Below are positions 24,701 to 44,145 of a stretch of DNA of 64,000 nt, one piece after another (within the stretch, counting starts at the first letter, position 1; each line of letters begins with the position of its first letter). The translations under genes were made by a program, and so were the position numbers. The notes below the pieces were generated by a model. That model did not search any database and had not been told where the DNA came from. It saw only the letters and a program-made list of their open reading frames with translations. Source of the stretch: Vicinamibacteria bacterium (GTDB lineage Bacteria > Acidobacteriota > Vicinamibacteria > Fen-336); the NCBI GenBank assembly GCA_016934575.1, contig JAFGSN010000194.1, positions 411 to 64,410 of the forward strand. The letters run 5' to 3'.

Positions 24701-27700
24701 CGATCTCTCGCCGGAGGATCGCCGCAGTCTGCGCCTCATCGCTCGCAAGACGTGGCGATACTTCGAGGCGTTCATGGGTCCGGAAGATCACGGCCTGCCC
24801 GCCGACAACTTTCAGGAAACGCCCGAGCCCCGTGCGGCTCACCGGACCTCGCCCACCAACATCGGCATGGGATTGCTCGCGACGCTTTCGGCGCACGATC
24901 TCGAATTCATCCCGACGGAAGAGCTGATCGAGAGAATCGACCGGACCTTGTCAGCCATGGAAAGCCTGGAGCGTTTCGAAGGCCACCTGTTCAACTGGTA
25001 CGACACGCAGAGCCTGGCGCCGCTTCCGCCGCGCTACATTTCCTCGGTCGACAGCGGGAACCTCGCGGGCGCTCTCCTGACCGCGGCCGAGGGCCTGCGC
25101 CGAATCAGTCGCGCGCCGCACGCCGCACGGGCGATTGGCGAGAGAATCGAGGACTTGGCGCGACGCGCGGACCTGTTCGCGAGCGGGATGAACTTCCGGC
25201 AATTCTATGATCCAAAACGCAGGATGCTTTCCATCGGCTATCGTCTCGCGGACGCCGACGGGCCGGGGCGTCTCGATTCCTCCTACTACGACCTTCTGGC
25301 CTCGGAAGCGCGTCTGGCGAGCTTCATCGCCATCGCCAAGGGCGACGTTCCGGAGACGCACTGGTTCCACTTGAGCCGGCTCGTCACCAGCGTGAACGGA
25401 AATCCGACGCTCCTGTCCTGGAGCGCGACCCTGTTCGAGTACCTGCTGCCGCTGCTCATGATGCGGAGTTATCCGGGAACGCTTCTCGACCAGTCGTGCC
25501 GGATGGCCGTGCGCCGGCAGATCGAGTTCGGAGCGGAGCGCGGCGTGCCTTGGGGAATTTCGGAATGCGCCTACAATCTCGTCGACCGACACGACAATTA
25601 CCAGTACAAAGCCTTCGGCGTTCCCGGCCTCGGCCTGAAACGGGGTTTGGGCGACGAGTTGGTGGTGGCTCCGTACGCCACGGCGCTCGCCGCAATGATC
25701 GAGCCTGAGCAGGCCGTACGGAATCTGCGTCGCCTGACCGAGGAGGGACTCGAGGGCGATTACGGTTACTATGACGCCATCGATTACTCGCACACGCAGA
25801 GGGACGAACCCGATAGACTCTCGCCGCGAACGTCGCGACCGCAAGGCGCCGTCGTGCGGGCCTACATGGCGCATCACCAGGGCATGACGCTCGTCTCCCT
25901 CGCCAACGTGCTCCTCGGCCAGCCGATGATCGAGCGTTTCCATGCCGATCCGCGCGTCAAGGCGACGGAAATGTTGTTGCAGGAGCGCGTTCCGCGCCAT
26001 GCGCCGACGATGCAGCCTCGGCCGGTCGAAGAGACACGGGCGGCGCCCGCGCCCGCGGTCGCGGTGCGTCGTTTTCGATCGCCGCACACGGCTTTTCCGC
26101 ACGCGCAGTTTCTGTCCAACGGCAGCTATGCCACGATCGTGACGAATGCGGGAGGGGGCGCCAGCTTCTGTCACGGCCGCGTGGTGACGCGCCATCGCCG
26201 GGATCAGACCCGCGATCCCGGAAGCCAGTTCCTCTATCTACGCGACGTCCGAAGCGGGACGGTGTGGTCCGCCACCCATCATCCCGTCGGCAAGGAGTCG
26301 GAGGATTTTCTGGCCTCCTTCCACGTCGACAAGGCGACGTTCCGCCGCCGTGACGAGGACATCGTCACGCAGCTCGACGTCGCGGTCTCCACCGAGCATG
26401 ACGTTGAAGTGCGCCGGCTGTCGGTGACCAACAAGAGCGATCGATCGCGCGAGATCGAGATCACGAGTTACGCGGAGATCGTCCTCGCGCAGCCGGCTGA
26501 AGATCTGGCTCACGCCGCCTTCGGCAAGCTGTTCATCGAGACGGAGTACCTGCCCGAAAGCGCCGCGCTCCTTTGCCGACGCCGGCCGCGCGCGCCGGAC
26601 GAAACGGGAGCGTGGGCCGTGCACGTCCTGAGCCTTGAAGGCCGGGCGCAAGGACCGGTGGAATGGGAAAGCGATCGCGCACGTTTTCTGGGCCGCGGTC
26701 GCGGTCCGGAGAATCCACAGGCGCTCGACGGACGCTCGCTTTCCGGCACGACAGGGATTCTCGTCGATCCCATCGTCAGCCTGCGACAACGCATCCGCCT
26801 CGCGCCGGGTGGTTTCATGCGGCTGTCCTTCGCCACGGGCATGGCCTCTTCTCGAGAAACGGCCCTGGCCCTGGCCCAGAAATACCACGATCCCAGCGCC
26901 GCCGCGCGCACCTTCGCCCTGGCTTTCGCGCACGCGCAAAGCGGTCTCAGGCACCTGGGCATCTCGCAGGAAGAAGCCCTGCTCTTCGATCGGCTGGCCT
27001 CGCGAGTGTTGTACTCGGACGAATCATTGCGCGCGAGCCCGAAAATCCTGGCTCAGTGCCGGCTCGGACAGGAGGGTCTCTGGCCTCACAGCATCTCCGG
27101 CGATCTTCCGATCCTTCTCGTGAGAGTCGTTGAAGAGGACGACCTGCCGCTCGTGCGGCATGTCTTGCAGGCGCAAGAGTACTGGCGGCTCAAGGGGCAA
27201 AAGGCGGACGTCGTCATCTTGAACGAGCACCCGACGAGCTATCTCGATGAGATGCAAACGCAGCTCGCGGGGCTCCTCGACAACGGCCCATGGCGAGCCT
27301 GGAAGCACCGGCCGGGCGGAGCCTATCTCCTCCGTGGAGATCTGATGCCCGAAGCCGAGCGTATCCTGATCGAGGCCGTGGCGCGCGTCGTGCTCAGCGG
27401 CGACAGGGGCGAACTGGCCGCACAGCTCGACCGGCCTTACGCCGAATGGCCGGGACCGGAGCCGGATGAGCTTGCATTCTCCCGCGAATCGCCGCCTGTC
27501 GGATCTTCGCCATCTATTAGTAATGAAGGGATCCCGGCGCCGCCCCTCGCCTTACCGAACGGCTTCGGCGGCTTTGCCGACAACGGACGAGACTATGCGA
27601 TCGTCCTCGAAGGAGACCAGGAGACGCCTCTGCCCTGGGCCAACGTCATCGCCAATCCTTCTTTCGGAACCGTCGTCACCGCTTCGGGTTCCGCCTATAC

Positions 27701-29969
27701 GTGGTCGGAGAACAGCCGCGAGAATCGCTTGACGCCCTTCGCGAACGATCCCGTCACGGATCCCACGGCCGAGGCGTTGTACATACGCGACGATGAAACC
27801 GGCGAGACCTGGTCGCCGACGCCGGGTGCGCTGCTTCGCACTCCCGCGAGCGGCCGCTTCTTGATTCGGCACGGCGCCGGGCTCTCGCGCTTCGCCCGTG
27901 CGACGCACGGCGTTCGCCACGACCTCGACGTCTTCGTGGAATCGAAGGATCCGGTCAAGTTCTCCCTGCTCACGCTCACCAATGAGAGCGGAGGGCCGCG
28001 TCGACTGAGCGTCATCGCCTACAACGAATGGATCCTGGGACCGCCGCGGGCAGGCCAGCAGGCGCACGTCGTCACCGATCTCGACGCATCGACCGGAGCG
28101 ATCCTGGCGAGGAACGCCTACAATCAGGAGTTCCCGGAGCGTGTCGCGTTCGCGCATGCCAGCGAACCATTGCGCTCGGCGACGGGAGACCGCCTGTCCT
28201 TTCTCGGCCGCAACGGCTCCATGACGCAGCCGGCGGCCCTTCGACGCCAGGCGCTATCGGGTCGCTTCGGCGCCGGGCTTGATCCGTGCGCGGCGCTCCA
28301 CGTCTCGCTCACGTTGGCTCCCGGCGAGAGTCGCCGCGTCGTTTTCCTCTTGGGTCAAGCTCGAGATACGCAGCATGCCCGCGAGCTTCTAGGGCGATAC
28401 GGGCAGGTCGACGCCGCCGAGGAAGCGCGGGAAACCGTGCGCCGTTTCTGGGATGAGACGCTGGGCGCGGTTCAGGTGCGCACGCCCGACGATTCTTTTG
28501 ACCTGCTGATGAACCGTTGGCTTCTCTATCAGGACATCAGTTGCCGCTTGTGGGCCCGCTCGGCCTACTATCAGCCCGGCGGCGCTTTTGGTTTCCGCGA
28601 TCAGTTGCAGGACGTCATGGCTCTCGCGTACTGCCGGCCGGATCTCATGCGGGAGCATCTGCTGCGCGCGGCGAGCCGGCAGTTTCTCGAAGGCGACGTC
28701 CAGCACTGGTGGCACGAGCCGAGCGGCCGCGGCATTCGCTCCCGCTGCTCCGACGATATGCTATGGCTTCCCTATGCCGTCGCGCACTACGTCCGGACGA
28801 CGGGAGATGCGGGCATTCTGGATGAGCGCGTGCGCTTTCTCGAAGCGCCGATCCTCGCCCCTGGCGAGGACGAGGCTTACGGTCAGCCCCGCGTTTCGAA
28901 AGAGGCGCAGCCGCTTCTTGACCACTGCCTGCGCGCCATCGACAAGGGAATCACGATCGGCGCTCACGGCCTTCCGCTCATCGGCACGGGAGACTGGAAT
29001 GACGGCATGAATCGCGTGGGACGGGAAGGGCGCGGCGAAAGCACGTGGTTGGGTTTCTTTCTTCACGGCATCCTGAGTGAATTCGCGCCCTTGTGCGAGT
29101 CGCGCGGCGAAAAGGCTCGCGCCGAGCGCTACCGCAACAAGGCCCACCGCCTGGCGACCATGCTGAAACGCACGTGGGACGGCGAGTGGTACCGGCGCGG
29201 CTATTACGACGACGGCATGCCTCTGGGTTCGGCGCAGAACGACGAGTGTCAGATCGACTCGATCGCGCAGTCTTGGGCCGTGCTTTCCGGCGCTGTAACC
29301 GTGGGTCATGCGGATCGCGCCATGGACGCGGTCCGCACTCACCTCGTCCGGCGAGGTCCGCAAGTGCTGCCGCTTCTCACGCCTCCTTTCGATTGCTCGG
29401 CGCAGGAACCCGGCTACATCAAGGGCTATCCTCCCGGCGTGCGTGAGAACGGCGGTCAATATACCCACGCCGCCCTCTGGGTCGTGATGGCCATGGCCAA
29501 GCTCGGCAGCGGGGACGAGGCGGTCGAGCTGTTCCACATGATCAACCCCATCAACCACACGCGCGCGCCGGCCGACGTCGAGCGCTACAAGGCCGAGCCG
29601 TACGTCGTCGCCGGCGACGTCTGCGCCCACCCCGCGCATGCCGGGCGCGCCGGCTGGACCTGGTACACCGGCTCGGCGGGCTGGATGTATCGCGCGGGTC
29701 TCGAGAGCATCCTCGGGCTTCGGCGTCGCGGCTCCGTCTTCGAGATTGATCCCTGCATTCCCTCGTCATGGTCCGAATATTTCGTCGTCTGGCGTCTCGG
29801 CCGGACGTGTTACGAGATCGCGGTCACCAATCCGGAAAGCCGCTGTCGTGGCGTTGCCAAGGCGAAACTGGACGAAATCTCCGTGGACCCGAGCGCCGTC
29901 CCTCTTGTGGACGACGGTAAAACCCACCGCGTCAAGGTGACCTTGGGTTCAGTCGTGAGAATGTCTTGA
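21762..29969 (+). CDS. cgs: Cyclic beta-1,2-glucan synthase (Cgs/NdvB/ChvB-type; GT84 + GH94-like domains)
   Basis: Single 2735-aa ORF. The N-terminal region is followed by TM helices. Next is a processive-GT block ([16 protein letters not shown]...GYGILQPRV). The C-terminal (alpha/alpha)6 phosphorylase-like region carries [11 protein letters not shown]. Confidence 0.88.
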
Positions 29970-30129: not shown

Positions 30130-31752
30130 TCACCTTGACGACACGGCCTGCTTGTACGCGTCCCGGATACGTTCCAGGTAGCCGCCCGACTTGTGGTACG
30201 CGGCGCTGTCCTCAGGCTTCGGATCGACACGCCTGCCGCGGGGCAGAGCGGCTTTGCTGAGCGCCTCCGCGTCGACGGCGGCGTCCTTGGCTTTCAGGAG
30301 CGCGACCGCCGCCGACACGGCGCTGCCTAGGGCGGCGCCGACATGGCCGATGGCGACGACCGGACGGTTCCAGATGGCGCTGATCCTGCGCATGATCTGA
30401 TCGCTGGCCGTGGCGCCTCCGGTCGCGAACAGGGGGAGCTTCGACTCGGGAGCGAAGGCGCGCGAGGTCAGATAGACCGCGGCCAGCGAGAAGTCGATGA
30501 TGCCGCCGTAATCGCTGTTCAGATCGGCCGACTTGTAACCGATACGGATCAGATCGAACGCCGGCGATACGGGGAAGGATTCGTTATCGGGTTGCCACAT
30601 GAACACGGTCGTTCCCGGGTTGTGCCTGGCGAGGGCGGATTCGCCCGGCGCGTAGTCCGACTTGGCGATGCCGTGCAGCGCGCGGACCCGGTCCCAGACC
30701 ATGGCGCCGTTCGTCCGGCATCCGAACGTGAACGGGCGGCCGATTCCATCGTACATCGCGTTGGCGAAGCCCTCGTTGTCCATGGTCTTGCCGTCGGTGG
30801 AAACCATGTTGACGAACGACGTTCCGAGGCTCAGAAGGTCGCTCTCAATCAGCACCTTGGTCTGAGGATTGTCGCCCGATCCTGCCGCTATCAGACAGTC
30901 CGGCGAGAGTCCGTACTTGGTCGTGAAGTACGGGCACAGCCGGCCGACGGCGCTGTCCGGCGGGACGAGCCCGGGGAGCTTGTCTTTGAGGGCGTTTGCG
31001 CCGCCGGGCAACCCCGCGGCCGCGGCGTCGATCAGAGTCTGCGACCAGGCCTTGGAACGATAGTCCATGAGCGAGGTTCCGCAGCCGTTGCCGAAGTCCC
31101 AGGGAACGCCGGGATCGGCGCAGAGCACGGCCGGAATGAAGCTGCTGATCAGTTGCACCTTCCACGTGTCCCGATAAGTGGCGGGAAACTGCTGGCCGAC
31201 GCGCCGCATGACGGCGCCGGTGAATCTGAGAGGCGAATCCGAGCCCGAGATTTCGATCATGGCCTTCTTGCCGCCGGCGCCTTGGCGCAGAGCGGCGGCC
31301 TGATCGGAGGTGTTTGAAGTTTTCCAGATCGGAGCGGCGCCGTATGAAAAGGCGTCGCCCAGAAGGGCGACAAGATCGGAATCGGCCGAGCTTTTCTCTT
31401 TCAGGGACGCGAACAAGGCCGGAGCGCGACCGTTCAGATATACATGGCCGTGTTGTTGGCCCGACACGTTGATGGCCGCGACCGAAGACAGATCGACGCC
31501 CTCGGTTTTCCAGTCGGCCAGGAGCGCGTCGAGCGACGCCAGAAACATCCGCGGAGGCTGATCGGCTTCGCCGGGCACCCGCGGCGGGACGATGTAATCG
31601 CTGAAACTGATGCCAAAACGGTTGAGACGCTTGTCCACGGCATAGTCGAGGCTTTTCTGCCACAAGATCTCGCCGGAGTCGACGTCGATGATCACGCCCG
31701 TCAGGCTCTGGGTGCTGGAATCGAGACCCATGGAGTAACGCTTGACGCTCAT
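30130..31752 (-). CDS. FGGY-family sugar kinase (eukaryotic-type xylulokinase-like)
   Basis: N-terminal MGLDSSTQS resembles the xylulokinase LGxDxSTQ motif; FGGY N- and C-domains. The last gene of the operon; 46 nt after the GT87-like gene. Confidence 0.8.
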   Translation of the reverse strand: MSVKRYSMGLDSSTQSLTGVIIDVDSGEILWQKSLDYAVDKRLNRFGISFSDYIVPPRVPGEADQPPRMFLASLDALLADWKTEGVDLSSVAAINVSGQQHGHVYLNGRAPALFASLKEKSSADSDLVALLGDAFSYGAAPIWKTSNTSDQAAALRQGAGGKKAMIEISGSDSPLRFTGAVMRRVGQQFPATYRDTWKVQLISSFIPAVLCADPGVPWDFGNGCGTSLMDYRSKAWSQTLIDAAAAGLPGGANALKDKLPGLVPPDSAVGRLCPYFTTKYGLSPDCLIAAGSGDNPQTKVLIESDLLSLGTSFVNMVSTDGKTMDNEGFANAMYDGIGRPFTFGCRTNGAMVWDRVRALHGIAKSDYAPGESALARHNPGTTVFMWQPDNESFPVSPAFDLIRIGYKSADLNSDYGGIIDFSLAAVYLTSRAFAPESKLPLFATGGATASDQIMRRISAIWNRPVVAIGHVGAALGSAVSAAVALLKAKDAAVDAEALSKAALPRGRRVDPKPEDSAAYHKSGGYLERIRDAYKQAVSSR

Positions 31753-31798
31753 TCTATGTTCCCCTTTTTCTTACAGTCTTCATTGACGCGCAATACTA

Positions 31799-33229
31799 TC
31801 ACGCCGCGGAGCCCGCGTCGGCGGGTTCGTGCTCGGGAAACGTCTGGTTGGCCTCGATCCGTCGGCGCTCGCTTTCTGTCGTTGGCCGGACTCGCAGCAG
31901 CATGAGCAGCGAGAGGAGCATGACGATCTCGGCGGCGACGAATTGCCACGTGGCATACGGTCCGCCGAAAGGCGCGATCAGGGCCCAGGAGTGACGGTCG
32001 GGAAGGGCGGCAAGGAGAAGTCCCAGGGCGCAGCCGGCGAGGGCGATGGATTCGCGCCTGCCGGAAAGGCGCGGGAAGAGCCCGAGAATCAGCACGGCCA
32101 GCGGAAGGAGCCATACGAGGTTCATGACCCAGGTGAGCGGCCCGGCGAGAAGGACGGCGGTCATGGCACACAGCCAGTACGTTGTTTCTTGAAAACGGCT
32201 CAGATCGTCTCTGCGACGACGGACGGCGATTCCGGCGACAAGGCCGGCGAGGCCGATGATGACGAGCGAGATCGTCGACGTCGCGCGATGCTCGCCGATC
32301 CGCGTGCGCGGCCGGGCCAGCCGGGCCGCCACGATCCGGGCCAGCGAGGCGTTGGCCACGATCTCGAACGACGATTCGCGATAAGCGCGGCCGTCCTTGA
32401 TCACGCGGCCTTCGGGAGCGCCGGAGCGCAGACGCGCGAGCGTCGCGCCATCGAGCAGCATTTCCGACGTGCCCCGCTCGCCGAATCGCGTGATGCGTGG
32501 AAGCTCCCGGAGAACGTATTCACGAACGGCAGTCGGGCCGTTCACGGCCAGCGCCGTCAGGAGCAGGACGAACGCGCCCAGGACGTATCCCGTGAGAACG
32601 CGCCATTTCCGGCGGATGAGCAGGAAGAGCGCCAGATAGCAGACGTTGAGCTTGAGCAGCGTCGCGGCGGCCAGAATCGCGCCGGAAGCCGGACCTCCTT
32701 TGCGGCCCCGGATCAACGGCGTGACGCCGAGGCTGACCAGGAGGAGCGTGACCGCGTCGATCTGGCCGGTCTCGAGGTGCGCGAGCAGCGGATGAAAGAG
32801 AGCGATTAAGGCGGCCAGAGCGCAAGTCGCGCGGCGATCGAGAGTCAGGCCGAGAGCGCGGACAAAGAGCCACACCGAGAGGCCGAGGCACGTCAGGCCG
32901 AAGAGCATCCACAGCCGTTTCGCCGCCGCATACGGCAGAAACGCCAGCGGCTTGAAGAGCGACGCCACGAGCGGCGGATAGAGGAAGCGGCTGTGACGAT
33001 AGGCGTCGATTCCGTCCCAGATCGGAGGGACGTGGTCCGCGTGCGTGCGATAGGGCGACAGGCCGTGCTGGAGTGCCTCGCCCGCGGTGTAGAACGCGGC
33101 GAAGTCGCGTTGTAGGCTCTCGTGGCCGAAGCGCGCCGTGAAGCCGGCGAGACGCGCCAGCGCGAGCACGCAGATGACGCCGATGAGCGCGTTCCAGAAA
33201 ACGAGGCGCGTTTCCCCCGGGCCGTTCAT
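31799..33229 (-). CDS. DUF2029/GT87-like polytopic GT-C glycosyltransferase
   Basis: About 12 predicted TM helices. The internal start MNGPGE at 33229 overlaps the SGNH stop (ATGA). The N-terminal Arg-rich part of the long ORF is unlikely to be coding. Confidence 0.55.
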   Translation of the reverse strand: MNGPGETRLVFWNALIGVICVLALARLAGFTARFGHESLQRDFAAFYTAGEALQHGLSPYRTHADHVPPIWDGIDAYRHSRFLYPPLVASLFKPLAFLPYAAAKRLWMLFGLTCLGLSVWLFVRALGLTLDRRATCALAALIALFHPLLAHLETGQIDAVTLLLVSLGVTPLIRGRKGGPASGAILAAATLLKLNVCYLALFLLIRRKWRVLTGYVLGAFVLLLTALAVNGPTAVREYVLRELPRITRFGERGTSEMLLDGATLARLRSGAPEGRVIKDGRAYRESSFEIVANASLARIVAARLARPRTRIGEHRATSTISLVIIGLAGLVAGIAVRRRRDDLSRFQETTYWLCAMTAVLLAGPLTWVMNLVWLLPLAVLILGLFPRLSGRRESIALAGCALGLLLAALPDRHSWALIAPFGGPYATWQFVAAEIVMLLSLLMLLRVRPTTESERRRIEANQTFPEHEPADAGSAA

Positions 33230-34347
33230 GGCTTTTCCCGTTCCATCATGACACGCACGACCGGCGCCAGGCTTTCGGCCGCGAGCCGGTGGGCGGTCTC
33301 GTTGGGATGCATGTCGATGGGATGGACCCAGAGCGAGCGCGTGGGCCGGCCGCGGAGCGCGGATCGCAGGTCGTGATGAGGCACGCCGGCGGAGAGGCAC
33401 ATGCGGGCGACGGCGTCCGCGACGTCCTCGAAGGGATAGACGCCGTCGAGTCCGACGAGCAACGGCCATGACGCGACGAGCAAACGGCCGCCGCGCGCCC
33501 GGATCCGGCGGTTCATCTCGCGAACGTGCTCTTCAGTTCGGCGCCGGCCCTCTTCGTTGGCCGCGCCCCACATTTCCTTGTACCAGCGCGTCGTTTCCCT
33601 GCCGACGCGGCACGATTCGACGCGGTCGCTCAAGAGCGCGGCCAGGCGCGAGTCGAGAAGGCCGAGGCGCTCTTCGGGCCGGCCGATGAGCATGCGCCCG
33701 CGATTCATTATCCAGTCGTTCACGTAGCTCTGGCGCACCTCGAACGACGCCGCGCGCGCGGCGTCGTTCGGAACCAGCGCGTAGACGAGAACATCCGCCT
33801 CGAGGAGCTCGGCTTCCTCGAAAACCTTCATGAGTCGCGGAAAATCCGTGGCGCGCCTCCCGCAGTTGAGCACCTCGCAGCGGCGGCGCATGGCGGCGTT
33901 CAACAGGCGTTCGAGCACGCGCGGATAGGCGTCCTCTTCCTTGACTCCCTGGCCTTCGGTGAACGAGTCCCCGAGCACCACGACGCGCCGCGCATCGCTT
34001 CGCTTCGGATCGGGCTCCGGCCCCCTGAATCCGAGCGTGTTGTAGCGGAACTCGACGGCCCAGGGAGCGCGATGGGAAACGACGTCGTAGCGGCGCGGCG
34101 CAAGGCCGAGATAGCGGGCGCGGGCTTCCGGACGGCGGAGATCGACGTCGAAGTATCCGCGCGGATTCGTCGGGTAGCAGTCGAGGAGCAGGCGCCCGTC
34201 GGAGCTGCGCAGAAACGCCATGCTCTTGTACGTCTCGGGCGCGTATCCGCGAGCGCGCAACGCGATCTCGAACAGGACGAGACAGGCCGTCACCGACGCG
34301 GCGAGCAGAGCCAGGCGAGCGAGGATTTCCCGCGATCTTCCGCTCAT
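33226..34347 (-). CDS. Membrane-anchored SGNH/GDSL hydrolase
   Basis: N-terminal TM anchor; block I VVVLGDSFTEG; block V DMHPNETAH. It is the C-terminal 373 aa of the artefactual 984-aa ORF 33226..36180. Its ATG overlaps the upstream stop (ATGA). Confidence 0.75.
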   Translation of the reverse strand: MSGRSREILARLALLAASVTACLVLFEIALRARGYAPETYKSMAFLRSSDGRLLLDCYPTNPRGYFDVDLRRPEARARYLGLAPRRYDVVSHRAPWAVEFRYNTLGFRGPEPDPKRSDARRVVVLGDSFTEGQGVKEEDAYPRVLERLLNAAMRRRCEVLNCGRRATDFPRLMKVFEEAELLEADVLVYALVPNDAARAASFEVRQSYVNDWIMNRGRMLIGRPEERLGLLDSRLAALLSDRVESCRVGRETTRWYKEMWGAANEEGRRRTEEHVREMNRRIRARGGRLLVASWPLLVGLDGVYPFEDVADAVARMCLSAGVPHHDLRSALRGRPTRSLWVHPIDMHPNETAHRLAAESLAPVVRVMMEREKP

Positions 34348-36092
34348 GGGATCGAGTACGAGAAGTTGACGCGATAGACGGAGATCGTGTGGCCGATCAC
34401 GGCCAGCGGTCGTCGGGCGCGGAAACGTTCCATCAGCGGTTGCGCCTCGGGAGGAACGTACAGACCCTGCAATGTCGTCGCGCTGATCGCCACGTAGTCT
34501 CCCGGACGCACGTCTCGGATCTCGCGCGGCCGGCGCGGGTAGCTCGGAAGGAACACGGCGTCGATGCCGTAGGCGTCGGGCTCCGCCGTTCCAAAGTAGG
34601 AGAATTTGATCCGCCGGATCCCGCGCGCGCGGAGAAAGTCGCGTAGGCCGGGCAGGTCCTGTCCCCAATCGAGGTTGGAATCGACAAGGAGCCTGTGCCC
34701 TTTTTCCGGCCCGCCGGCCAGCTCGTTGAAGTACGCCAGATAATGGGGATGCGCGCGCAGCGTGCTGGCGGCGTGCCACGCGAGCAGGGCGACCGCGACC
34801 CATCGCGCGCGTCGATTGCGGCAGGACAGGGTCCAGCCGCATGCGCGGCCGGCCGCCACGATGAGGAAGGGCAGGACCGGAAGCACGTGGCGGTGGCCGA
34901 TGTTGATCGAACGCGACATGCTGATCAGCAGGTAGATGACGGGCGGCCACCACAAAAACCATTCGGCCCGCGCCGACCTCGGGCGCCTGAGAGCCAGCGG
35001 CACGGCCGCGAGCGCCAGCGTGAGAAGCGGCAGCGGAGTCTTGAAGAGCAGCGTCAAGGGAAAGTAGTACCACCATCCCGTTTCCGAGGTCCTGCCCATG
35101 AGGAACGCCGGCCGCGTCCGGGTATGGGCCATGAAACGTTGGAATCCGTAAAGGTAGGCTTCGGGCAGAAGGCTCAAGCGCTCGGCAACGCGGAATCCGC
35201 CCGCGACGACGCGGTTCTCGGGGACGACCAGCGAGCGATCGAAAGACGCGTTGACGGCGGGTTCGGCTGCCGTGGGCGAGTTGAATCCGTAAGACGCCCA
35301 GATGACGGCGGCGGAGACGATCGCGGCAAAGACGGCGAGGGCGATGACGACGAGAATCCGCGCGAAGCGCGTTTTCACGATGACTGCCGCGGAAGATCCG
35401 AGACGAAAGCCGGCGACGGGGAGCGGCGCGTTCGATAGCGCCAGTCGGAGCGCGGGAACGCCGGCCAGGCCGACGAGCGCCGCTCCCGAGAACTTCGTGG
35501 CGAACGCGCATCCCGAGACGAGCGCGGCCAGCGCGAGACGAGACCAGGTCACGCGCTCGAAGACGCGCTCCCAGGCGGCGACGGACCCGAAAAGGAAGAG
35601 ACTGACGGCGAGATCGTTGGTGACGAGGCTCCCGTGCGCCAACAGGCTCGGGCTGAACGCGAAGAGCCAGAGGCCGCAGAGACCGGATGTCGTCCCGAAG
35701 TGGCGGCGTGTCCACAAGAAGATGGAGAGACCCAGCAGGCAGCCGAGTCCGACGACGACCAGGCGGCCCCTGAGGAGCAACGCGCCGGCGTCGTTCCAGC
35801 GATAGAGAAAGCGCCGTCCGAACTCCCAGGGGTGATGCTCTCGCCATGCGACGTCGTCGAGACGGTAATGGACGTTCATGAACAGCAGCGGCCAGGCGGC
35901 CAGGCGTCGGAGAAAGGGCGGATGATCGGGATTCAAGCGATGGTCGGCCAGGGTCAGGCTCATGTATCCGGGCGGCAGGTGAATGACCTCGTCGTATGTC
36001 CCGGACATGCGCATGAGGCTCGATATCGCCAGACTGGCATAGATCGCCAGGCACGCGCATGCCGCCGCCGCGACGAGCAGCCGCCGTTTCAT
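34344..36092 (-). CDS. ArnT/PMT-family (GT39/GT83-like, COG1807) polyprenyl-phosphate-sugar-dependent GT-C glycosyltransferase
   Basis: 582 aa with about 11 TM helices. The loop-1 acidic motif GTYDEVIHLPPGY (the PMT/ArnT 'DE' motif) is present. The start overlaps the S8 gene stop (ATGA). Confidence 0.72.
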   Translation of the reverse strand: MKRRLLVAAAACACLAIYASLAISSLMRMSGTYDEVIHLPPGYMSLTLADHRLNPDHPPFLRRLAAWPLLFMNVHYRLDDVAWREHHPWEFGRRFLYRWNDAGALLLRGRLVVVGLGCLLGLSIFLWTRRHFGTTSGLCGLWLFAFSPSLLAHGSLVTNDLAVSLFLFGSVAAWERVFERVTWSRLALAALVSGCAFATKFSGAALVGLAGVPALRLALSNAPLPVAGFRLGSSAAVIVKTRFARILVVIALAVFAAIVSAAVIWASYGFNSPTAAEPAVNASFDRSLVVPENRVVAGGFRVAERLSLLPEAYLYGFQRFMAHTRTRPAFLMGRTSETGWWYYFPLTLLFKTPLPLLTLALAAVPLALRRPRSARAEWFLWWPPVIYLLISMSRSINIGHRHVLPVLPFLIVAAGRACGWTLSCRNRRARWVAVALLAWHAASTLRAHPHYLAYFNELAGGPEKGHRLLVDSNLDWGQDLPGLRDFLRARGIRRIKFSYFGTAEPDAYGIDAVFLPSYPRRPREIRDVRPGDYVAISATTLQGLYVPPEAQPLMERFRARRPLAVIGHTISVYRVNFSYSIP

Positions 36093-39000
36093 CGCGTTGC
36101 TCGCGATCCGCGCGAATCGCTCTCGATGCCGCCGGAAGAACGCTCGGGAAGAACGGCGAACACGAGATCGTCGCGTTCATCGAGATCGCCCGGCGTACAG
36201 GGACCCGGATCGTCGCTCAAGCGGAGCTGAGCGCGCACGGCCTGCAGCGCGCCGCGCGGCAGAACGAAAGCGGCGTTGAGCGTCTGCGCGCCGGCGTGAC
36301 TTGGGCGAAGCGTTTCGATCCATTCCCAGTCGGGAGCCGCGGCGTCTCTGGCGTGAAAAACGTCGACTTTCGCGGATTCGAACTCAGGGGCCGCCCAGAC
36401 GGTCACCTCGACGCGCACCGTCGCTCCCGGCGAGAAGACGGCGCCGGAAGCGGAGGAGATGCGGATGCGATCCACCGACGCGTCGATGTGGTGCGTTCCC
36501 GCCGCGCCGTCCTCGCAGGCGCCGTCCAACGTGTTGGGAGCGTTGATCTCGGGCCCGAGCGGGCCGCGGCCCCACAAGAGCGTCGCGGAGTCGCACGCGC
36601 GGCGCGGTTTGGCGCACATGGGAACGCGCAAAACGGCGTTATAGCGCGCGCGACTGTTGAAGGTCGAGATCGTCATGATCCGGGACGCGCCGACGTTGCC
36701 GGCGGCGTCGTGGGCGCGCGCTTCGAGAAGATGCTCGCCGTCCACCTCGAGAGTCGTGTCCCATTCGTATGCGTAGGGCGGAACGATGTCAGCGTGGCGC
36801 ATCAGGCCGTCCACGTGGAATTCCACGCGATCCAGACGCGTGTCGTCCGAGGCCGAGGCCGCGACAAGAACCTGGCCGGAGACCGACGAATCCGCGGCGG
36901 GCGAGACAAGCGACACGACGGGCGGCGCGGGGTCTTTCATCCGCGGCAAGGCGCGAGTCAGAACGAGCGGATTTCCCGGAGACGCCGCGTCGAGCGGCCA
37001 GAGTGGCGTTCCGCCATGAATCGGCGTTTCCGTGCGCAGCGCCGTCAAGACGCCGCTTTCAAGCCGGCCGAGATCGCCGTCTCGGCTCACCAGCGGGTAG
37101 TGAACGGCGAGATCGAGCCGGCCGTCGCCGTCGAGATCGCCGGGAACGATCACGGCGGCGGGCGCGTAGAGCGGACGTTCATTCGCGCCATGAAGCCGCC
37201 AGGATCGCGTCGTCGTGCCGTCTCTTCGCATCGCGAGAAGAAGCGCCGCCGGACGACGTAAAGGCGCCTCGCGCTCGTCTTTCGCTAGACGCAGTATGTT
37301 CTCGACGGCGATCATGCCGTCCGCGTCCCGGCGCGTCTCACGCGCGCGACGGCGACTGTCGCCGTGGACGCCGGGCGAGGAACGACGGCGTTCGTCGGGA
37401 TATGACGCGGCCGGCGTTTCGGCGACCACGAGAATCTCGGGGTAGCCGTCGCCGTCCACGTCGGCGAGGGCCGGCGCGCCGAACCCTTCCTCGCCCGGAA
37501 AAGTCTTCGGCCACGTCCGTGAAAACGACGATCCATCCGTCCGGAGCACGTGCAAGGCAGGGCCGTCGGCGGCGACGATCTCCAATCGGCCGTCAAGATC
37601 GAGATCGCCCAGCGCGAAGGAGAAATCATGTCGATACGACAGAACCAGGGGCCAGCCGGGCAACATGGATCCGTCGGCGGCCAGAACCGCGAGGATTTTC
37701 CGTCCTTCAACCACGGCCATTAGAACGATCTCCAGACGCCCGTCTCCAATGATATCGGCCGCCGCGATCTGTCGCGGCACGCCCTCGAATGCCGGCGCGC
37801 GCCAGGCCACGGTTTCGCCGTCGCTGTTGTAGAGCCGCAAGCGAAAGAACGAAGGCGTCGAGCCCTCGACGATCAGGATCTCCTTTCGGCCGTCCCCGTC
37901 GAAATCGGCGGCGAGCACGCGTGGCGCGGGAGAGTGCGACAGCGAGTCGTTATGATCCGCGATCGAGATCGGGAAGCGGCCGGCGATCGGCGCGCCTCCA
38001 AGGCGCCAGGCATGGAGATGGGCCATGCGCGCCCCATGATCGCTCCCCAACGCCAGAAGCTCGGTCTGGCCGTATCCGTCAAGATCTTCGAGCACGGGCA
38101 ACGCCATCTGGAAATTGATCGCAATGGCGGACGCGAGGAACACGCTCCGGCCGTCGCCGCGCACGATGCGTAATCGATGGGCGTCGGTCGCGATCGTCTC
38201 GTCGCCGGCGCACGGATCAAAATCTCCGACCGCGGGCCGAAGAAAGGCGGCGCGGGCGAGGTCCAGGGAAACGGGCGGCGCCGAATGGAACGGTAAGAAA
38301 TGAAGCCTCGCGGGCAGATCGTGGCGCGGCGTGTCGATCGTCGCCAGAACGACGCGCGGCTCGCCGCCGGCGTCTTTGACGATCGCCATGCCTCCGTGCG
38401 CCGCCGGCGCGGCGTTCAGCCGGCGCGGCTCACGGTCAAAAAGAAGATCAGGCTCGACGTAGACGACGATCGTCTCCTCGCTCGTGAATCGCTCGTTATG
38501 CGCCCTGAGCCTCAGGCTGTAGTAGTCCGCCTGCTCGACTTGCGGCACGTCCCAGTGCGCGAGTCGGGCGTTCTCCGTCTCGCGCCGCCCTTCGCCCGCG
38601 AGCGTTACGCCCAGCGAAGACCAGTCGCCCGTCGGCCGCGTCCCCCGCGTCCATGTCAGGTCGTAACCGTGGAAGGACGGTCCGGTGGCGGTGCCCCTGA
38701 TGGGAACGCGGCCGCCGGCGCGGAGCACCGGCGTCGCGCTCAGCCGCCGCGCCGGCGGCGGCGCCGTGATCGCGACGTAGTCGACCCGAACGCAGACCTG
38801 ATCGGCGAACGTTCTTCCCGCGTCGTCAAAGGCCGACAGCCGAAGCGTGTAATCGCCGTCGGGCAGCGCGCGCGCATCGAAGACGCCGAGCGCTCCGCCT
38901 TTGGCCGTTTGCGAGCTTTCGTGAAGAAGACGCCAGGAGCGCGGGCGCGAACCGCGGCCGTACTCCAGGACATAACGCCGGAACCCGGGGCCCGCGGCCA

Positions 39001-40552
39001 GGCCGCGGACGTTCACGACTCCGCGCAGCGCAGCACCCTCCGGGGGATCAAGAATGCGAGAGTCGAGAGCGCCTTTGGCGTCGAGCGCCCGGCGGGCGTC
39101 GACGCGGCCTTGCCCGGAGCGATCGTCCGCGCCCGGTTTTTCGATGTCGCGGGCGGTCGTTCGCAGGATCTGCCGCACCGCTTCGGGAGAGAGGTCCGGA
39201 TGGCCGGCGAGAAGGAGCGCGGCCAGAGCCGAGACGTGCGCGGCGGCCATGCTCGTCCCGCTGGCGCGCGCATAGCGCTCGCCCACGGGATCGCCGATCG
39301 CCGTTTCGGCGCCGCGCAGCGAGAGAATGTCCACGCCGGGAGCGACGACGTCGAGGGCGGCGCTGGAGCGCGAGAAAACGGCGACCCGGTCCTCGGGATC
39401 GCTCGCGCCGACGGAGATGACGTGCGGCAAGAACGCCGGATGGCGGGGATGTTCGGCGTCGCTTTCATTGCCGGCGGCGGCGACGATGACCGTCCCGAGT
39501 TGGTGGGCGTATTCCAGCGCCTCCGCCAGGGAGCGCGATGTTCCCGTTCCGTTCCACGCAAGCAGGATGACATCCGCGCCGTTCCGGGCGGCGTAGACGA
39601 TTCCGCGCGCCGCCAGTGAATCCCGTCCGTCGCCGGCGTCATCCAACACCCTGATCGCCATGACTTGCGATTCCCAGGCCAGTCCGGCGATGCCTCGGGT
39701 GTTGTCGCCCGTGGCGGCGATCGTGCCCGCGACGTGCGTGCCGTGACCTTGTCGATCCGCGGGGTCGTTGTCCTCGGCCGGGTCGGCGCAGCGGGCGCCC
39801 ACGAAATCCCAGCCGTGAACGTCGTCGACGTAGCCGTTGCCGTCGTCGTCGCGGCCGTTTCCGTGGATTTCAGAGGCGTTGATCCAGATGTTGGCGGCGA
39901 GGTCGGGATGGTCGCGGTCGACGCCCGAATCGATGACGGCGACGACGATTCCATCACCGCGCGTCACGTCCCAGGCGGAAGGCGCGGAGATCTTGCGCAG
40001 ACCCCACAGATCCTCGTAAGGTTGGCCCCAACCGCCCTTCCTTATCAAGTAGGGATCGTTCGGAATCGCGGCTGTTCGCAGGCGGCGGTCGCGCTCGGCG
40101 AATTCGACTTCGTGGTCTTGCGCCAGGCGTGACAGCGCGAGCGGGAGATCGTCGTCTTCGACGTCAAGGAACAGCATCCATGTTCGCGCCAGTGAAGGCG
40201 GATGGAGTTCGCCGCGATGGCGCAGCGCGCGCGACGCGAATCGGGCGCGCACGCGCTCGGCCTGGTCGCGCGAGCTCAGGCCGGGCCGGCGTTTCCTTTC
40301 TCGCAAGAGCGCCGGATGCAGAGGTCGGAGCGCGACCACCGCATGACGTTCAGCGAAGGACGCCAGACGTTCCGAGGACAGGCTCTCGTGGCGTATTGCG
40401 GCGAGTCGCGGAGACCATGCGGCCTCGGCCTCGGCCGCCAGCTCGGGCCGGAGCCGGGCCAGGATCCATGATGGGCCGCACGCGGCCTTGGCCGTGCGCG
40501 CCTGCGACAAGATTCCGAAAAAGGCCATGGCTAAGCCGAGAAGGATTCGCAT
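36089..40552 (-). CDS. Secreted subtilisin-like serine peptidase (S8) with Ig-like domains and FG-GAP beta-propeller repeats
   Basis: Signal peptide MRILLGLAMAFFGILSQARTAKA. S8 triad blocks VAVIDSGVD, HGTHVAGTIAA and GTSMAAAHVSALAAL. At least six FG-GAP-like repeats follow (FDGDGRKEILIV, DIIGDGRLEIVL, DLDLDGRLEIVAAD, DVDGDGYPEILVV, DLDGDGRLDLAV). C-terminal Big-like domains. Confidence 0.85.
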   Translation of the reverse strand: MRILLGLAMAFFGILSQARTAKAACGPSWILARLRPELAAEAEAAWSPRLAAIRHESLSSERLASFAERHAVVALRPLHPALLRERKRRPGLSSRDQAERVRARFASRALRHRGELHPPSLARTWMLFLDVEDDDLPLALSRLAQDHEVEFAERDRRLRTAAIPNDPYLIRKGGWGQPYEDLWGLRKISAPSAWDVTRGDGIVVAVIDSGVDRDHPDLAANIWINASEIHGNGRDDDGNGYVDDVHGWDFVGARCADPAEDNDPADRQGHGTHVAGTIAATGDNTRGIAGLAWESQVMAIRVLDDAGDGRDSLAARGIVYAARNGADVILLAWNGTGTSRSLAEALEYAHQLGTVIVAAAGNESDAEHPRHPAFLPHVISVGASDPEDRVAVFSRSSAALDVVAPGVDILSLRGAETAIGDPVGERYARASGTSMAAAHVSALAALLLAGHPDLSPEAVRQILRTTARDIEKPGADDRSGQGRVDARRALDAKGALDSRILDPPEGAALRGVVNVRGLAAGPGFRRYVLEYGRGSRPRSWRLLHESSQTAKGGALGVFDARALPDGDYTLRLSAFDDAGRTFADQVCVRVDYVAITAPPPARRLSATPVLRAGGRVPIRGTATGPSFHGYDLTWTRGTRPTGDWSSLGVTLAGEGRRETENARLAHWDVPQVEQADYYSLRLRAHNERFTSEETIVVYVEPDLLFDREPRRLNAAPAAHGGMAIVKDAGGEPRVVLATIDTPRHDLPARLHFLPFHSAPPVSLDLARAAFLRPAVGDFDPCAGDETIATDAHRLRIVRGDGRSVFLASAIAINFQMALPVLEDLDGYGQTELLALGSDHGARMAHLHAWRLGGAPIAGRFPISIADHNDSLSHSPAPRVLAADFDGDGRKEILIVEGSTPSFFRLRLYNSDGETVAWRAPAFEGVPRQIAAADIIGDGRLEIVLMAVVEGRKILAVLAADGSMLPGWPLVLSYRHDFSFALGDLDLDGRLEIVAADGPALHVLRTDGSSFSRTWPKTFPGEEGFGAPALADVDGDGYPEILVVAETPAASYPDERRRSSPGVHGDSRRRARETRRDADGMIAVENILRLAKDEREAPLRRPAALLLAMRRDGTTTRSWRLHGANERPLYAPAAVIVPGDLDGDGRLDLAVHYPLVSRDGDLGRLESGVLTALRTETPIHGGTPLWPLDAASPGNPLVLTRALPRMKDPAPPVVSLVSPAADSSVSGQVLVAASASDDTRLDRVEFHVDGLMRHADIVPPYAYEWDTTLEVDGEHLLEARAHDAAGNVGASRIMTISTFNSRARYNAVLRVPMCAKPRRACDSATLLWGRGPLGPEINAPNTLDGACEDGAAGTHHIDASVDRIRISSASGAVFSPGATVRVEVTVWAAPEFESAKVDVFHARDAAAPDWEWIETLRPSHAGAQTLNAAFVLPRGALQAVRAQLRLSDDPGPCTPGDLDERDDLVFAVLPERSSGGIESDSRGSRATR

Positions 40553-41002: not shown

Positions 41003-42361
41003 CTAAAGCTTGACCTCCGGCACGGATTTCATCGCTTCGCGGATGGCCTCTTCGGGATAGGCGTAATCCTCGAGCTTGCCCGAGAAAAAGGCGTCATACG
41101 CGGCCATGTCGACGTGGCCGTGTCCCGAGAGATTGAAGGCGATGACCTTGGCCTCTCCCGTTTTTTTGCATTCAAGCGCCTCATCGATGGCGACGCGCAC
41201 GGCGTGAGAAGTCTCGGGCGCCACGATGATGCCCTCGGTGCGCGCGAATTGAATGGCGGCCTCGAAGCAGGTCTTCTGATGACGCGCCGTGGCCTCGATG
41301 AGCTTTTTCTCGACGAGGGCGGAAATGAGCGGCGCCATGCCGTGATATCGGAGCCCGCCGGCGTGAATCCGCGGCGGCATGAAGGTGTGACCGAGCGTGT
41401 GCATCTTGACGATGGGGGCCATGCCGGCCGTGTCGCCGTAATCGAAAACATACTGGCCGCGCGTGATGCTCGGACACGATTCGGGCTCCACGGCCACGAT
41501 TCGAAGGTCTTGGCCGTCAAGCTTGTCCGGGATGAAGGGCATGGCGAATCCGCCGAAGTTGGATCCGCCTCCGACGCAGCCGATGAGCACGTTGGGTCGC
41601 TCGCCGGCGGCGGCGAGCTGCTTCTTTGTCTCCAGGCCGACGATTGTCTGATGCAAGATCACGTGGCTCAGGACCGAGCCCAGCGAGTAGTGCGTGTCGT
41701 CACGACCGAACGCATCCTCGACAGCCTCGGATATGGCCAGGCCGAGGCTGCCCGGGCAGTCGGGGTCGTTGGCCAGAGCGGTCCGGCCGGCCTTGGTCAA
41801 TCGAGACGGACTCGCCACGACGTTCGCTCCCCAGGTCTGTATCATCGACTTGCGGTAGGGCTTTTGATCGAAACTGACGCGCACCATGTAGACCATGCAC
41901 TCCAGGCCGAACTGGGCGCAGGCGAAGGAAAGCGCGCTGCCCCACTGGCCGGCGCCCGTCTCCGTCGCGATGCGCTTCACGCCCTCGCGCTTGTTGTAAT
42001 AGGCCTGGGCCACGGCGGTATTGGGCTTGTGGCTTCCGGGAGGGCTCTGGGACTCGTTCTTGTAATAGATACGGGCCGGCGTTTCCAGAGCTTTCTCGAG
42101 ATTCCTGGCGCGATGGAGCGGCGTGGGTCTCCAGAGCGCGAGAACTTCCAGGACTTCCTGCGGGATGTCGATCCAACGTTGCCGCGAGACCTCCTGTTCG
42201 ATTACGGCCATGGGGAAGAGGGGCGCCAGATCGTCGGGCTTGACCGGCTGCATCGTGCCCGGATGCAGGACCGGCGTCGCGGCGTCCGGAACGTCAGCGT
42301 AAACGTTGTACCACTGGCGAGGCATCTCTTCCCACGGCAATAGAACACGCGGCGACTTCAT
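41003..42361 (-). CDS. trpB2: Tryptophan synthase beta-chain-like protein, TrpB2 type
   Basis: 452 aa PLP fold. The N-terminus ([14 protein letters not shown]) and overall length are typical of TrpB2 rather than TrpB1. No trpA is adjacent. Confidence 0.8.
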
Positions 42362-42501: not shown

Positions 42502-44145
42502 ATGAGCGTTCACCCCCGCGCTGGCCAGCCGGCCGAATGGCGCGATCTCACGGACGTGCCGCGCCTGATCGCCGCGTTTTACACGGAGCGGCCGGATCCG
42601 GCCGCGAGCGCGCAGCGCGTTTCGTTCGGCACGTCGGGCCATCGTGGCTCGTCCGTGCGCGGCAGCTTCAACGAGGCGCACATCGTCGCCGTCACCCAGG
42701 CGATTTGCGAGCAGCGTGCGATGCGGGGAGTCGGCGGGCCGCTTTTCCTGGGGCGGGACACGCATGCGCTATCGGAGCCGGCGCATCGCGCCGCGCTCGA
42801 GGTGCTCGCCGCCAACGGCGTGGACGTGCGTCTGGACGCGGACGACGGATATACGCCGACGCCCGTGATCTCGCATGCCATCCTGTCATGGAATCGCGGC
42901 CGTTCCGCGGCGCGCGCCGACGGGATCGTCATCTCGCCCTCGCACAATCCTCCCGAGGACGGCGGCTTCAAGTACAACGCGCCCCATGGCGGACCGGCCG
43001 ACGCCGAGACCACGAGATGGATCGAGCGGCGCGCCAACGCGCTGATCGAGGACGATCTCGAAGGCGTTCGGCGCGTGCCTTATGAGAAAGCGCGGTCCGC
43101 GCCGACGACGAGGCGTCATGATTATCTGGGCCGGTATGTTGAGGATCTTCCGGCCGTGGTCGACGTCGCGGCCATTCATGCCGCCGGCGTTCGCATCGGC
43201 GTGGATCCCTTGGGCGGCTCGAGCGTCGCCTACTGGGCGCGCATCGCCGAGCGTTATCACCTCGCCCTGGAGATCGTCAATGCGCGCGTGGATCCCACGT
43301 TCTCGTTCATGCGCCTCGACTGGGACGGCAAGATCCGCATGGACTGCTCTTCGCCGCACGCCATGGCGGGATTGATCGGCCTGCGCGACCGCTATCAGGT
43401 CGCCGTCGGGAACGACACCGACGCCGATCGACATGGAATCGTCGTTCCGGGCGCGGGACTGCTGAGCCCCAATCAGTATCTTGCAACGGCGATCGCTTAC
43501 CTTTTCCGGCATCGGCCCGATTGGCCGAAGACGGCCGGGATCGGCAAGACCCTGGTGAGCAGCAGCCTTATCGATCGCGTGGCGCGCGGCCTGCAACGCC
43601 GACTGGTCGAGGTCCCCGTCGGATTCAAGTGGTTCGTTTCGGGGCTCTTGTCGGGCGAACTGGGCTTCGGCGGCGAGGAAAGCGCCGGAGCGTCGTTCTT
43701 GCGGCGTGACGGCGCGGTCTGGACCACGGACAAGGACGGCATTCTCCTCGGATTGCTGGCCGCCGAGATGACGGCGGTCTCGGGCCAGGATCCCGGCGAG
43801 CTGTATCGGGAACTGGCGCGCGTTCATGGCGCGCCGGTTTTCGAACGAATCGATGCGCTCGCGACGCCGGAGCAGAAAGCCGCGCTCGCGCGTCTCACGT
43901 CCGCGCAGGTCGACGCCAAGGAGTTGGCCGGTTCGCCCATAGAGAACGTGCTGACCAGGGCGCCGGGGAATGAGGAGCCGATCGGCGGTCTCAAGATCAT
44001 GACGGCTGACGGATGGTTCGCCGCGCGTCCTTCCGGCACGGAGGACGTTTACAAGATCTACGCCGAAAGCTTTCGCGGTCCGGAACATCTTCGACGGATT
44101 CAGGAAGAGGCGCAGGCTCTCGTGACCAGGGCGCTCGGTCATTGA
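42502..44145 (+). CDS. pgm: Phosphoglucomutase (alpha-D-glucose-1,6-bisphosphate dependent)
   Basis: Near-colinear with E. coli Pgm. The phosphoserine loop [17 protein letters not shown] and GGEESAG blocks are present. Confidence 0.92.

Follow-up and report, generated by a model that had tools for sequence, protein, structure and literature searches.

A GT-C, SGNH and GT87 gene trio in a Vicinamibacteria genome: a probable envelope glycoconjugate module flanked by protease and kinase genes

A preliminary description of five minus-strand genes in a Vicinamibacteria (Acidobacteriota) MAG, which lie within the 64,000-nt stretch of DNA analysed here (the window), presented them as one dedicated system for a periplasmic glycoconjugate: a secreted S8 protease, two GT-C glycosyltransferases, an SGNH hydrolase and an FGGY kinase. 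In a sample of 166 loci (2.2 Mb) anchored on homologues of the first GT-C gene, only the GT-C, SGNH and GT87 genes recur together; among the matches listed, an FGGY kinase was found at 0 of the 166 loci and an S8 domain at one, 7 kb off in a planctomycete. We conclude that the functional unit is probably GT-C plus SGNH plus GT87, forming a glycoconjugate module, and that the S8 and FGGY genes became adjacent to it through local rearrangement. Because only the middle three genes travel together in relatives, the protease and the kinase are probably just neighbours. The part of the proposed glycoconjugate pathway that stands is thus the GT-C, the GT87 protein and the anchored SGNH enzyme, predicted to face the periplasm; the membership of S8 and FGGY does not. 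As it stands, the cluster is an uncharacterised yet unsurprising envelope modification locus, not a new protease-glycosylation system.

The five genes were borne out by the open reading frame list and by reading of the bases. The S8 subtilase gene (36089-40552) encodes 1487 aa counted from an ATG, the length also given in the NCBI record, and its open frame continues to a TTG at 40720. It is followed on the minus strand by the genes for the GT-C glycosyltransferase (core gene 1; 34344-36092, 582 aa), the SGNH hydrolase (core gene 2; 33226-34347, 373 aa), the GT87 protein (core gene 3; 31799-33229, 476 aa) and the FGGY kinase (30130-31752, 540 aa). Three ATGA start/stop junctions, read base by base, are exact (36092-36089, 34347-34344 and 33229-33226), as is the 46-nt spacer between the GT87 stop codon (TGA, 31801-31799) and the FGGY ATG (31752). 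The spacer is AT-rich, with a separate Shine-Dalgarno sequence, AAGGGG, for FGGY. A 984-aa ORF at 33226-36180 was discarded: it merely shadows the SGNH frame, as happens in high-GC DNA. The tight same-strand packing of the five genes, with overlaps or short gaps, makes their co-transcription likely. No sigma-70-like promoter was found by a consensus scan, and terminator-like sites occurred inside genes only, near background frequency (13 versus 8.1 +/- 3.2).

This arrangement invites the view that all five genes serve one pathway: the S8 protein would receive O-linked sugars from the GT-C enzymes during export, the SGNH hydrolase would shorten the resulting glycan, and the FGGY kinase would supply sugar precursors. 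The genes share a strand, S8 and GT-C share an ATGA, and FGGY is only 46 nt off, across a gap in which the consensus scan found no terminator-like site. ATGA overlaps, however, are a habit of this genome: three more occur in the window (12704-12707, 17853-17856 and 56583-56586), and one other than those of the cluster links a PolyA_pol/HD nucleotidyltransferase gene with a GAF-GGDEF cyclase gene, whose functions are unrelated. Functional units in compact genomes of high GC content cannot be defined by 4-nt ATGA overlaps alone; a synteny check in relatives is necessary.

Synteny of all five genes, proposed earlier as a check, fails for S8 and FGGY, neither of which adjoins the core at any of the 166 loci among the matches listed. 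An SGNH orthologue (50-82% identity) was found at no fewer than 14 of the GT-C-anchored loci, usually as the neighbour of GT-C and in a few cases as far as about 4 kb off, and at least 22 further contigs, matched by their equal lengths, are apparently common to the GT-C and SGNH match lists. GT87 is present at four or more such loci, with a fifth case, the P0013 contig, taken from the Pfam table only; its gene comes after the SGNH or GT-C gene in L002, L082, L166, L169 and the P0013 contig. The recurring unit is GT-C, SGNH and GT87 in that order, or GT-C with one of the other two, and the genes often share 4-nt overlaps like those of the window. The GT-C/SGNH overlap (34344-34347) is kept in the P0013 contig and L166, with a 3-nt gap instead in L082, and the SGNH/GT87 overlap (33226-33229) is kept in L082, the P0013 contig and L166. 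In L166 (JGI 3300057034), the closest relative listed (identities of 86% for GT-C, 82% for SGNH and 73% for GT87), seen as a 2.9-kb contig with the S8 side outside it, no FGGY gene lies in the 150 nt after GT87, which argues against a place for the kinase in the pathway.

On the other side of the core, the GT-C start overlaps differing upstream genes in relatives: in the P0013 contig the overlapped gene is GT87-like, in L168 it resembles Spermine_synth. Upstream of the core, where the window has the protease, relatives carry genes for another SGNH enzyme and a GT87-like protein, together with one for a FadL-like outer-membrane protein that is divergently paired with the cluster in at least 12 relatives. 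None of the relatives' extra genes (FadL-like outer-membrane protein, second SGNH, GT87-like 382-aa protein, M16 and PMT_2-like) was found in the window. M16 peptidases, a family other than S8, recur near the cluster in relatives; a link to proteases by way of them is faint.

The S8 protein itself is as first described, a secreted subtilase with FG-GAP repeats (Peptidase_S8, 211 bits; FG-GAP_3, 94 bits; FG-GAP, 51 bits), and it also has Ig-like domains (Big_7, 52 bits). It matches thermitase/subtilisin, its signal peptide, judged by eye, is MRILLGLAMAFFGILSQARTAKA with A as the next residue, and its catalytic triad, D208/H270/S434, lies in DSG, HGTH and GTSMA motifs in the S8 order. The final 20 residues (LPERSSGGIESDSRGSRATR, approximately 36092-36151) are missing from the closest homologues, and P0122 and P0124 end at the equivalent of residue 1467. 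The S8 frame reaches the TGA inside the GT-C start solely through this non-conserved tail; the overlap at 36089-36092 is real and appears secondary to juxtaposition. In the neighbourhoods of three S8/FG-GAP homologues, no PMT_2-type GT-C, SGNH or GT87 gene adjoins the protease gene, and no S/T/P-rich linker or acceptor region was found in the S8 protein. Given the tail, the unrelated contexts, the missing S/T/P-rich linker and the occurrence of ATGA overlaps between unrelated genes, S8 is probably a bystander outside the conserved module. The suggestion that the protease is the glycosylation target thus lacks support, being at odds with both the synteny and the composition of the protein. A five-gene pathway might still draw on a GT-C fold as near to protein O-mannosyltransferases as to ArnT, and on a PGM/PMM-family gene 2 kb upstream on the opposite strand; weighed against the evidence from relatives, the tail and the kinase, we consider it highly improbable.

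The kinase passes for both FGGY domains (FGGY_N, 36.1 bits; FGGY_C, 27.1 bits), in keeping with its earlier family call. It scores 101 bits with the XylB model TIGR01312, far under the equivalog cut-off of 380, and to call it eukaryotic-type was fair because its best solved relative is human xylulokinase (4BC2; E 2.7e-43, full length). Judged by sequence, the kinase is xylulokinase-like. To our knowledge the xylulokinase product has no precursor role for polyprenyl-phosphate sugars, which counts against a kinase that feeds the glycosyltransferases. It too is probably a mere neighbour, outside the conserved module.

For the 582-aa protein, HMM and structure tests upheld the assignment to the ArnT/PMT-type GT-C enzymes. 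It has a polytopic membrane fold of GT-C_A type, like that of ArnT, PMT and STT3, and belongs to a distinct uncharacterised clade. Immediately past TM1 (helix 3-26) comes the motif D34-E35-x-x-H38, whose three named residues do not vary among 29 sequences, D34/E35 being the conserved acidic catalytic residue(s) of the first extracytoplasmic loop by which GT-C enzymes are recognised. The PMT_2 Pfam score is 24.0 bits, below the gathering cut-off of 26.1, and 27 of 29 relatives match PMT_2 at E<=0.01; the protein is best treated as a member of a sister clade rather than of GT39. More than 3,800 homologues are spread over Acidobacteriota, Verrucomicrobiota, Planctomycetota and others. A search of PDB sequences with the family profile gave spurious globin matches only, and the predicted structure was used instead. 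With Foldseek, ArnT was the top match over the full length, C-terminal domain included, at the roughly 13% identity that holds for any solved structure. ArnT, ALG12, Pmt4 and STT3 score alike in the fold search, which does not separate lipid, glycan and protein acceptors. The core might accordingly carry out general protein O-glycosylation, PMT-like as in Actinobacteria, on many exported substrates of which S8 would be at most one. This is unlikely: a Pfam search found no MIR domain in the GT-C, its soluble domain is C-terminal as in ArnT, and its partners, an esterase, more GT-C enzymes and a FadL-like channel for hydrophobic molecules, better suit a lipid or glycolipid. The GT87 partner, of a family that we know from lipoglycan synthesis only and with a match to PimE, weighs the same way.

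The SGNH hydrolase was correctly called a membrane-anchored enzyme (Lipase_GDSL_2, 54 bits; a single hydrophobic segment at 12-30). Its catalytic residues G126-D127-S128, N194 and D345-x-H347 are invariant in 31 sequences, as are E27, R31 and P37, which lie in or beside the anchor helix. Blocks I (GDS), III (N) and V (D..H) are thus conserved, block V being DxH versus the canonical DxxH, and an AF2 model (pLDDT 87) confirmed the SGNH fold. Foldseek with this model returned generic GDSL esterases only, TesA and Axe2 among them, which give no pointer to a substrate.

The DUF2029/GT87 assignment of core gene 3 is secure (91 bits versus a Pfam gathering cut-off of 25). The protein is polytopic, with about 10 hydrophobic segments, and matches the PimE structure (PDB 9dm5; E 5.8e-6), with sequence similarity confined to residues 81-231; by these matches it is a PimE-like (DUF2029) homologue of GT-C mannosyltransferases. 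We know of no GT87 enzyme with a role in LPS. This point bears on another possibility, that the core decorates lipid A or the LPS core like ArnT, RgtA-D or LgmB, with the SGNH enzyme deacylating a carrier-linked sugar or lipid. The full-length match to ArnT, the diderm host, the divergent FadL-like protein of at least 12 relatives and the deacylase-plus-GT-C pairs that occur in the Arn and Lgm pathways are consistent with such a role. No ArnC- or ArnD-like genes were found nearby, however, and lipid A decoration is a special case of the envelope module, not a true alternative, which nothing singles out; we regard it as improbable.

The analysis supports, as a prediction, the idea that two GT-C enzymes and an anchored SGNH hydrolase use polyprenyl-phosphate sugars on the periplasmic side of the inner membrane. 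Gene structure, families, fold, conserved catalytic residues and the pattern of synteny are observed; the orientation in the membrane, the kind of donor, the class of acceptor and the part played by the esterase are predicted. The three-gene module would be specific to Vicinamibacteria and would lie at the inner membrane, facing the periplasm. The ArnT/PMT-like GT-C and the PimE-like GT87 protein would each take a sugar, in the case of GT87 probably mannose, off a polyprenyl-phosphate carrier and attach it to an acceptor in the envelope, for which a lipid-linked glycan or glycolipid is likelier than a specific protein. Its conserved anchor helix would keep the SGNH esterase on the membrane surface, where the enzyme may deacylate that donor or product or, less likely, transfer the acyl group; no MBOAT/AT3 partner for acyl transfer is present, and hydrolysis needs none. 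S8 and the xylulokinase-like FGGY, brought alongside by a lineage-local rearrangement, would probably be co-transcribed with the module and not be components of its pathway. Since no donor-synthesis GT2 (ArnC/Ppm1/GtrB-type) or flippase gene was found among the window's genes or in the sequence flanking the core in relatives, we infer the polyprenyl-phosphate donor from fold and family knowledge; the sole GT2 candidate in the window is the GT2 domain of a cyclic-glucan-synthase-like giant.

A bolder proposal, possible though doubtful, makes the conserved locus the source of an outer-envelope glycolipid, resembling lipomannan or else new in kind, which members of a Gram-negative phylum would export by way of the FadL-like channel; a weaker variant has S8 recruited as a new glycosylation substrate in this lineage. 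The window would then hold a reduced locus (GT-C, SGNH and GT87); the fuller form in relatives also includes another anchored SGNH, a GT87-like protein, more PMT_2-like proteins and the divergent FadL-like outer-membrane protein. Literature searches on GT-C with SGNH, on GT87 with GT39 and GDSL, and on Vicinamibacteria with glycosyltransferases and the outer membrane found nothing relevant. Vicinamibacteria are abundant soil bacteria that have barely been cultured. Characterisation of the core would reveal what a large and so far unstudied GT-C clade does and what role a GT87 enzyme plays outside Actinobacteria, and would give insight into the Vicinamibacteria envelope.

Among known systems, ArnT (GT83) is the undecaprenyl-phosphate-L-Ara4N:lipid A transferase of the Arn pathway. 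The window GT-C is only about 13-14% identical to it, no ArnC/ArnD/ArnEF genes are near the core, and in place of a CE4-type deformylase the partner is an SGNH esterase, which comes coupled with a second GT-C enzyme, GT87. Compared with the PMT/Pmt enzymes (GT39) of Actinobacteria and eukaryotes, the GT-C has no MIR domain and falls short of the gathering score in Pfam; the neighbours of the core include no Ppm1 gene and point to lipid/glycan chemistry. The SGNH hydrolase shares its fold with periplasmic SGNH glycan esterases and acetyltransferases (the SGNH domains of OafA/OafB, and PatB/Ape1) and, like them, is predicted to be anchored to the inner membrane on its outer side and tied to envelope glycan modification. 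It differs from them in having no fused or adjacent AT3/MBOAT acyl-translocating partner, in having generic GDSL esterases as its nearest structures, and in its block V DxH. PimE/GT87 of mycobacterial PIM/LM/LAM synthesis is the counterpart of core gene 3, although the host here is a Gram-negative acidobacterium, a setting in which PIM or lipomannan is not known, and the similarity is partial (residues 81-231). Like PimE, core gene 3 encodes a polytopic protein, one that scores 91 bits and matches 9dm5, and, as in lipoglycan pathways, it sits beside other GT-C enzymes.

Five genes lie in series on the minus strand, encoding a serine protease (S8, 36089-40552), an ArnT/PMT/STT3-like glycosyltransferase (GT-C, 34344-36092), a membrane-anchored esterase (SGNH, 33226-34347), a second glycosyltransferase (GT87, 31799-33229) and a sugar kinase (FGGY, 30130-31752). 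The preliminary description gave exact coordinates for these ORFs, and when the junctions were read base by base, the three ATGA overlaps it had claimed were present at 36092-36089, 34347-34344 and 33229-33226. A 46-nt, AT-rich spacer separates GT87 from the FGGY start and contains a ribosome-binding site (AAGGGG). A 984-aa minus-strand ORF at 33226-36180 was rejected as an Arg/Pro-rich shadow, in which the SGNH frame stays open beyond its own start and on across GT-C, out of frame with that gene; it is a high-GC artefact. The source MAG, from Vicinamibacteria (Acidobacteriota), has a GC content of about 65%. Three more ATGA stop/start overlaps were found in the window, at 12704-12707, 17853-17856 and 56583-56586. 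Because the first of these joins functionally unrelated genes, for a PolyA_pol/HD nucleotidyltransferase and a GAF-GGDEF diguanylate cyclase, the ATGA overlaps here do not imply shared function; this genome habitually packs its genes with 4-nt overlaps, which are no proof of a shared pathway.

On either side of the five genes the window holds several other features. FGGY converges, at a distance of 160 nt, on a plus-strand gene (21762-29969) for a 2735-aa protein with GT2, DUF3131/glucoamylase and GH94 domains that resembles cyclic beta-1,2-glucan synthase. A PLP-dependent (PALP) enzyme gene (41003-42361, minus) lies 450 nt upstream of S8, followed on the plus strand by a PGM/PMM-family mutase gene (42502-44145) and, just downstream of it, a gene in which a response-regulator receiver domain and a PilZ domain are fused (44509-45339). 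Apart from a tRNA-Gln (CTG) gene at 7595-7668 (plus), no RNA gene was found in the window.

Pfam searches and structure comparisons agreed with the family assignments proposed earlier. The S8 protein matched Peptidase_S8 (211 bits), FG-GAP_3 (94), FG-GAP (51) and Big_7 (52), and its protease domain, which carries the triad D208/H270/S434, resembles thermitase and subtilisin. SGNH matched Lipase_GDSL_2 (54 bits) and has one hydrophobic helix, at the N-terminus. Alignment showed invariant residues G126-D127-S128, N194 and D345-x-H347, and also E27, R31 and P37, which lie in or beside the anchor helix; the predicted SGNH model (pLDDT 87) matched only generic GDSL esterases. GT87 scored 91 bits on the GT87 family and matched the solved mannosyltransferase PimE (9dm5, E 5.8e-6). 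FGGY gave 36 and 27 bits on FGGY_N and FGGY_C. The label "eukaryotic-type" is a fair one for this kinase because human xylulokinase 4BC2 matches it over its full length (E 2.7e-43), but the label does not extend to a substrate; the 101 bits scored on the XylB model are far below the equivalog cut-off.

The GT-C family is large, with >3,800 matches at E<=1e-3, and has members in Acidobacteriota, Verrucomicrobiota, Planctomycetota, Lentisphaerota, Deltaproteobacteria and further groups. Its members often occur as two or three tandem paralogues, as in three Verrucomicrobia loci (L009, L025, L063) that have neither SGNH nor GT87 partners. All window proteins were used in tblastn searches of 166 sampled loci anchored on GT-C and totalling 2.2 Mb, of which 80 came from genomes, 80 from metagenomes and the others from several long contigs. 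SGNH orthologues, 47-82% identical, were found in 14 of the sampled loci and GT87 in four, with a fifth GT87 case, on contig P0013, known from a Pfam table only; 22 further contigs, paired by their identical lengths, were common to the GT-C and SGNH match lists. In L166 (2.9 kb), the closest relative among the matches listed, the GT-C C-terminus is 86% identical, SGNH (82%) is joined by an ATGA overlap and GT87 (73%) by a 4-nt overlap, and the 150 nt after GT87 hold no trace of the FGGY N-terminus. The conserved unit is GT-C-SGNH-GT87.

That the five genes form one protease-centred glycosylation pathway, a possibility raised in the preliminary description, is unlikely. An FGGY homologue was found in none of the 166 sampled loci, and an S8 catalytic domain in one, the planctomycete locus L057, 7 kb away. 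Searches with S8 showed that proteins of the S8 + FG-GAP + Ig architecture form a very large family (4,383 matches; best non-self identity 42%), and none of three homologues on long contigs had a PMT_2-type GT-C, SGNH or GT87 beside it. Their neighbours were unrelated to glycosylation; in one case a membrane protein with DUF2079 was encoded some 2.4 kb off, past two genes on the opposite strand. The S8/GT-C overlap itself seems to have arisen when the two genes came to lie side by side and the S8 frame ran on through what had been spacer, since the two closest homologues sharing the C-terminal domain stop at the equivalent of residue 1467, whereas the window S8 continues through a 20-residue low-complexity tail, LPERSSGGIESDSRGSRATR (residues 1468-1487; 36092-36151, minus), to the TGA that overlaps the start codon of GT-C. 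PMT substrates usually carry a Ser/Thr/Pro-rich linker; the window S8 has none, which counts weakly against it as a PMT-type substrate. With synteny in the sampled loci limited to GT-C-SGNH-GT87, and overlaps also found between unrelated genes, the five-gene system was not borne out.

In the best relatives a divergent FadL/Toluene_X-like outer-membrane protein gene precedes SGNH-a, a GT87-like 382-aa protein, GT-C, SGNH-b and GT87, and 4-nt overlaps recur within the last three. The divergent pairing was seen in 12 sampled relatives (L082 6326-7678, minus, 36 bits; equivalents in L004-L008, L026, L028, L084, L086, L087 and L127). In L169, GT-C is coupled directly to GT87. In L168 (7578-10004) and L083 (7102-9507), an approximately 800-aa Spermine_synth-like membrane protein is encoded directly upstream of GT-C, overlapping its start by 4 nt in L168, and some clusters encode extra PMT_2-like proteins (Pfam). 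An M16 (insulinase-type) peptidase gene lies just downstream of the cluster in L004 (13741-15159), L005 (16043-17353), L007 (3089-4348), L082 (16310-17608) and the P0013 contig, which may mean that gene order is conserved along the chromosome or that there is a faint link to proteases. The window lacks all of these extra genes.

As families, GT-C enzymes take sugars from polyprenyl-phosphate carriers on the outer side of the cytoplasmic membrane, GT87 enzymes are mannosyltransferases that use polyprenol-phosphate-mannose in making lipoglycans, and FadL-like channels handle hydrophobic molecules. A general protein O-glycosylation system is a doubtful reading of the GT-C-SGNH-GT87 core, as the relatives' partners, namely additional GT-C enzymes, another anchored SGNH and the FadL-like channel, suit a glycolipid or lipid-linked glycan acceptor better than a protein. 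We therefore favor, as probable, a module that faces the periplasm and assembles and remodels envelope glycoconjugates; S8 and FGGY would be bystanders to it, co-oriented and probably co-transcribed. Judging from their families, GT-C and GT87 would draw on polyprenyl-phosphate-linked sugars on that side of the cytoplasmic membrane. SGNH, tethered to the same membrane, would act on a lipid-linked substrate at the surface of the bilayer or as part of a complex with a GT-C enzyme, as its invariant juxtamembrane residues suggest. Decoration of lipid A/LPS is one possibility within the envelope module reading, not singled out by the data. We infer the donor, acceptor, orientation and esterase role of the core; no donor synthase or flippase gene was found nearby, in the window or in the relatives' flanks.

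The core resembles the Arn/Lgm systems in combining carrier-lipid sugar transfer with a putative deacylase, and it chains several GT-C enzymes as the actinobacterial lipoglycan pathways do, but it is a member of neither. GT-C is only about 13% identical to ArnT, no Arn genes lie nearby, and SGNH stands where the Arn type has a CE4 enzyme. Unlike PMT, GT-C falls below the PMT_2 threshold and has no MIR domain, and there is no Ppm1 gene; unlike acyl-transfer systems, the core has no AT3/MBOAT partner. Literature searches turned up no description of this gene combination, and the core is a lineage-specific arrangement of well-known enzyme families.
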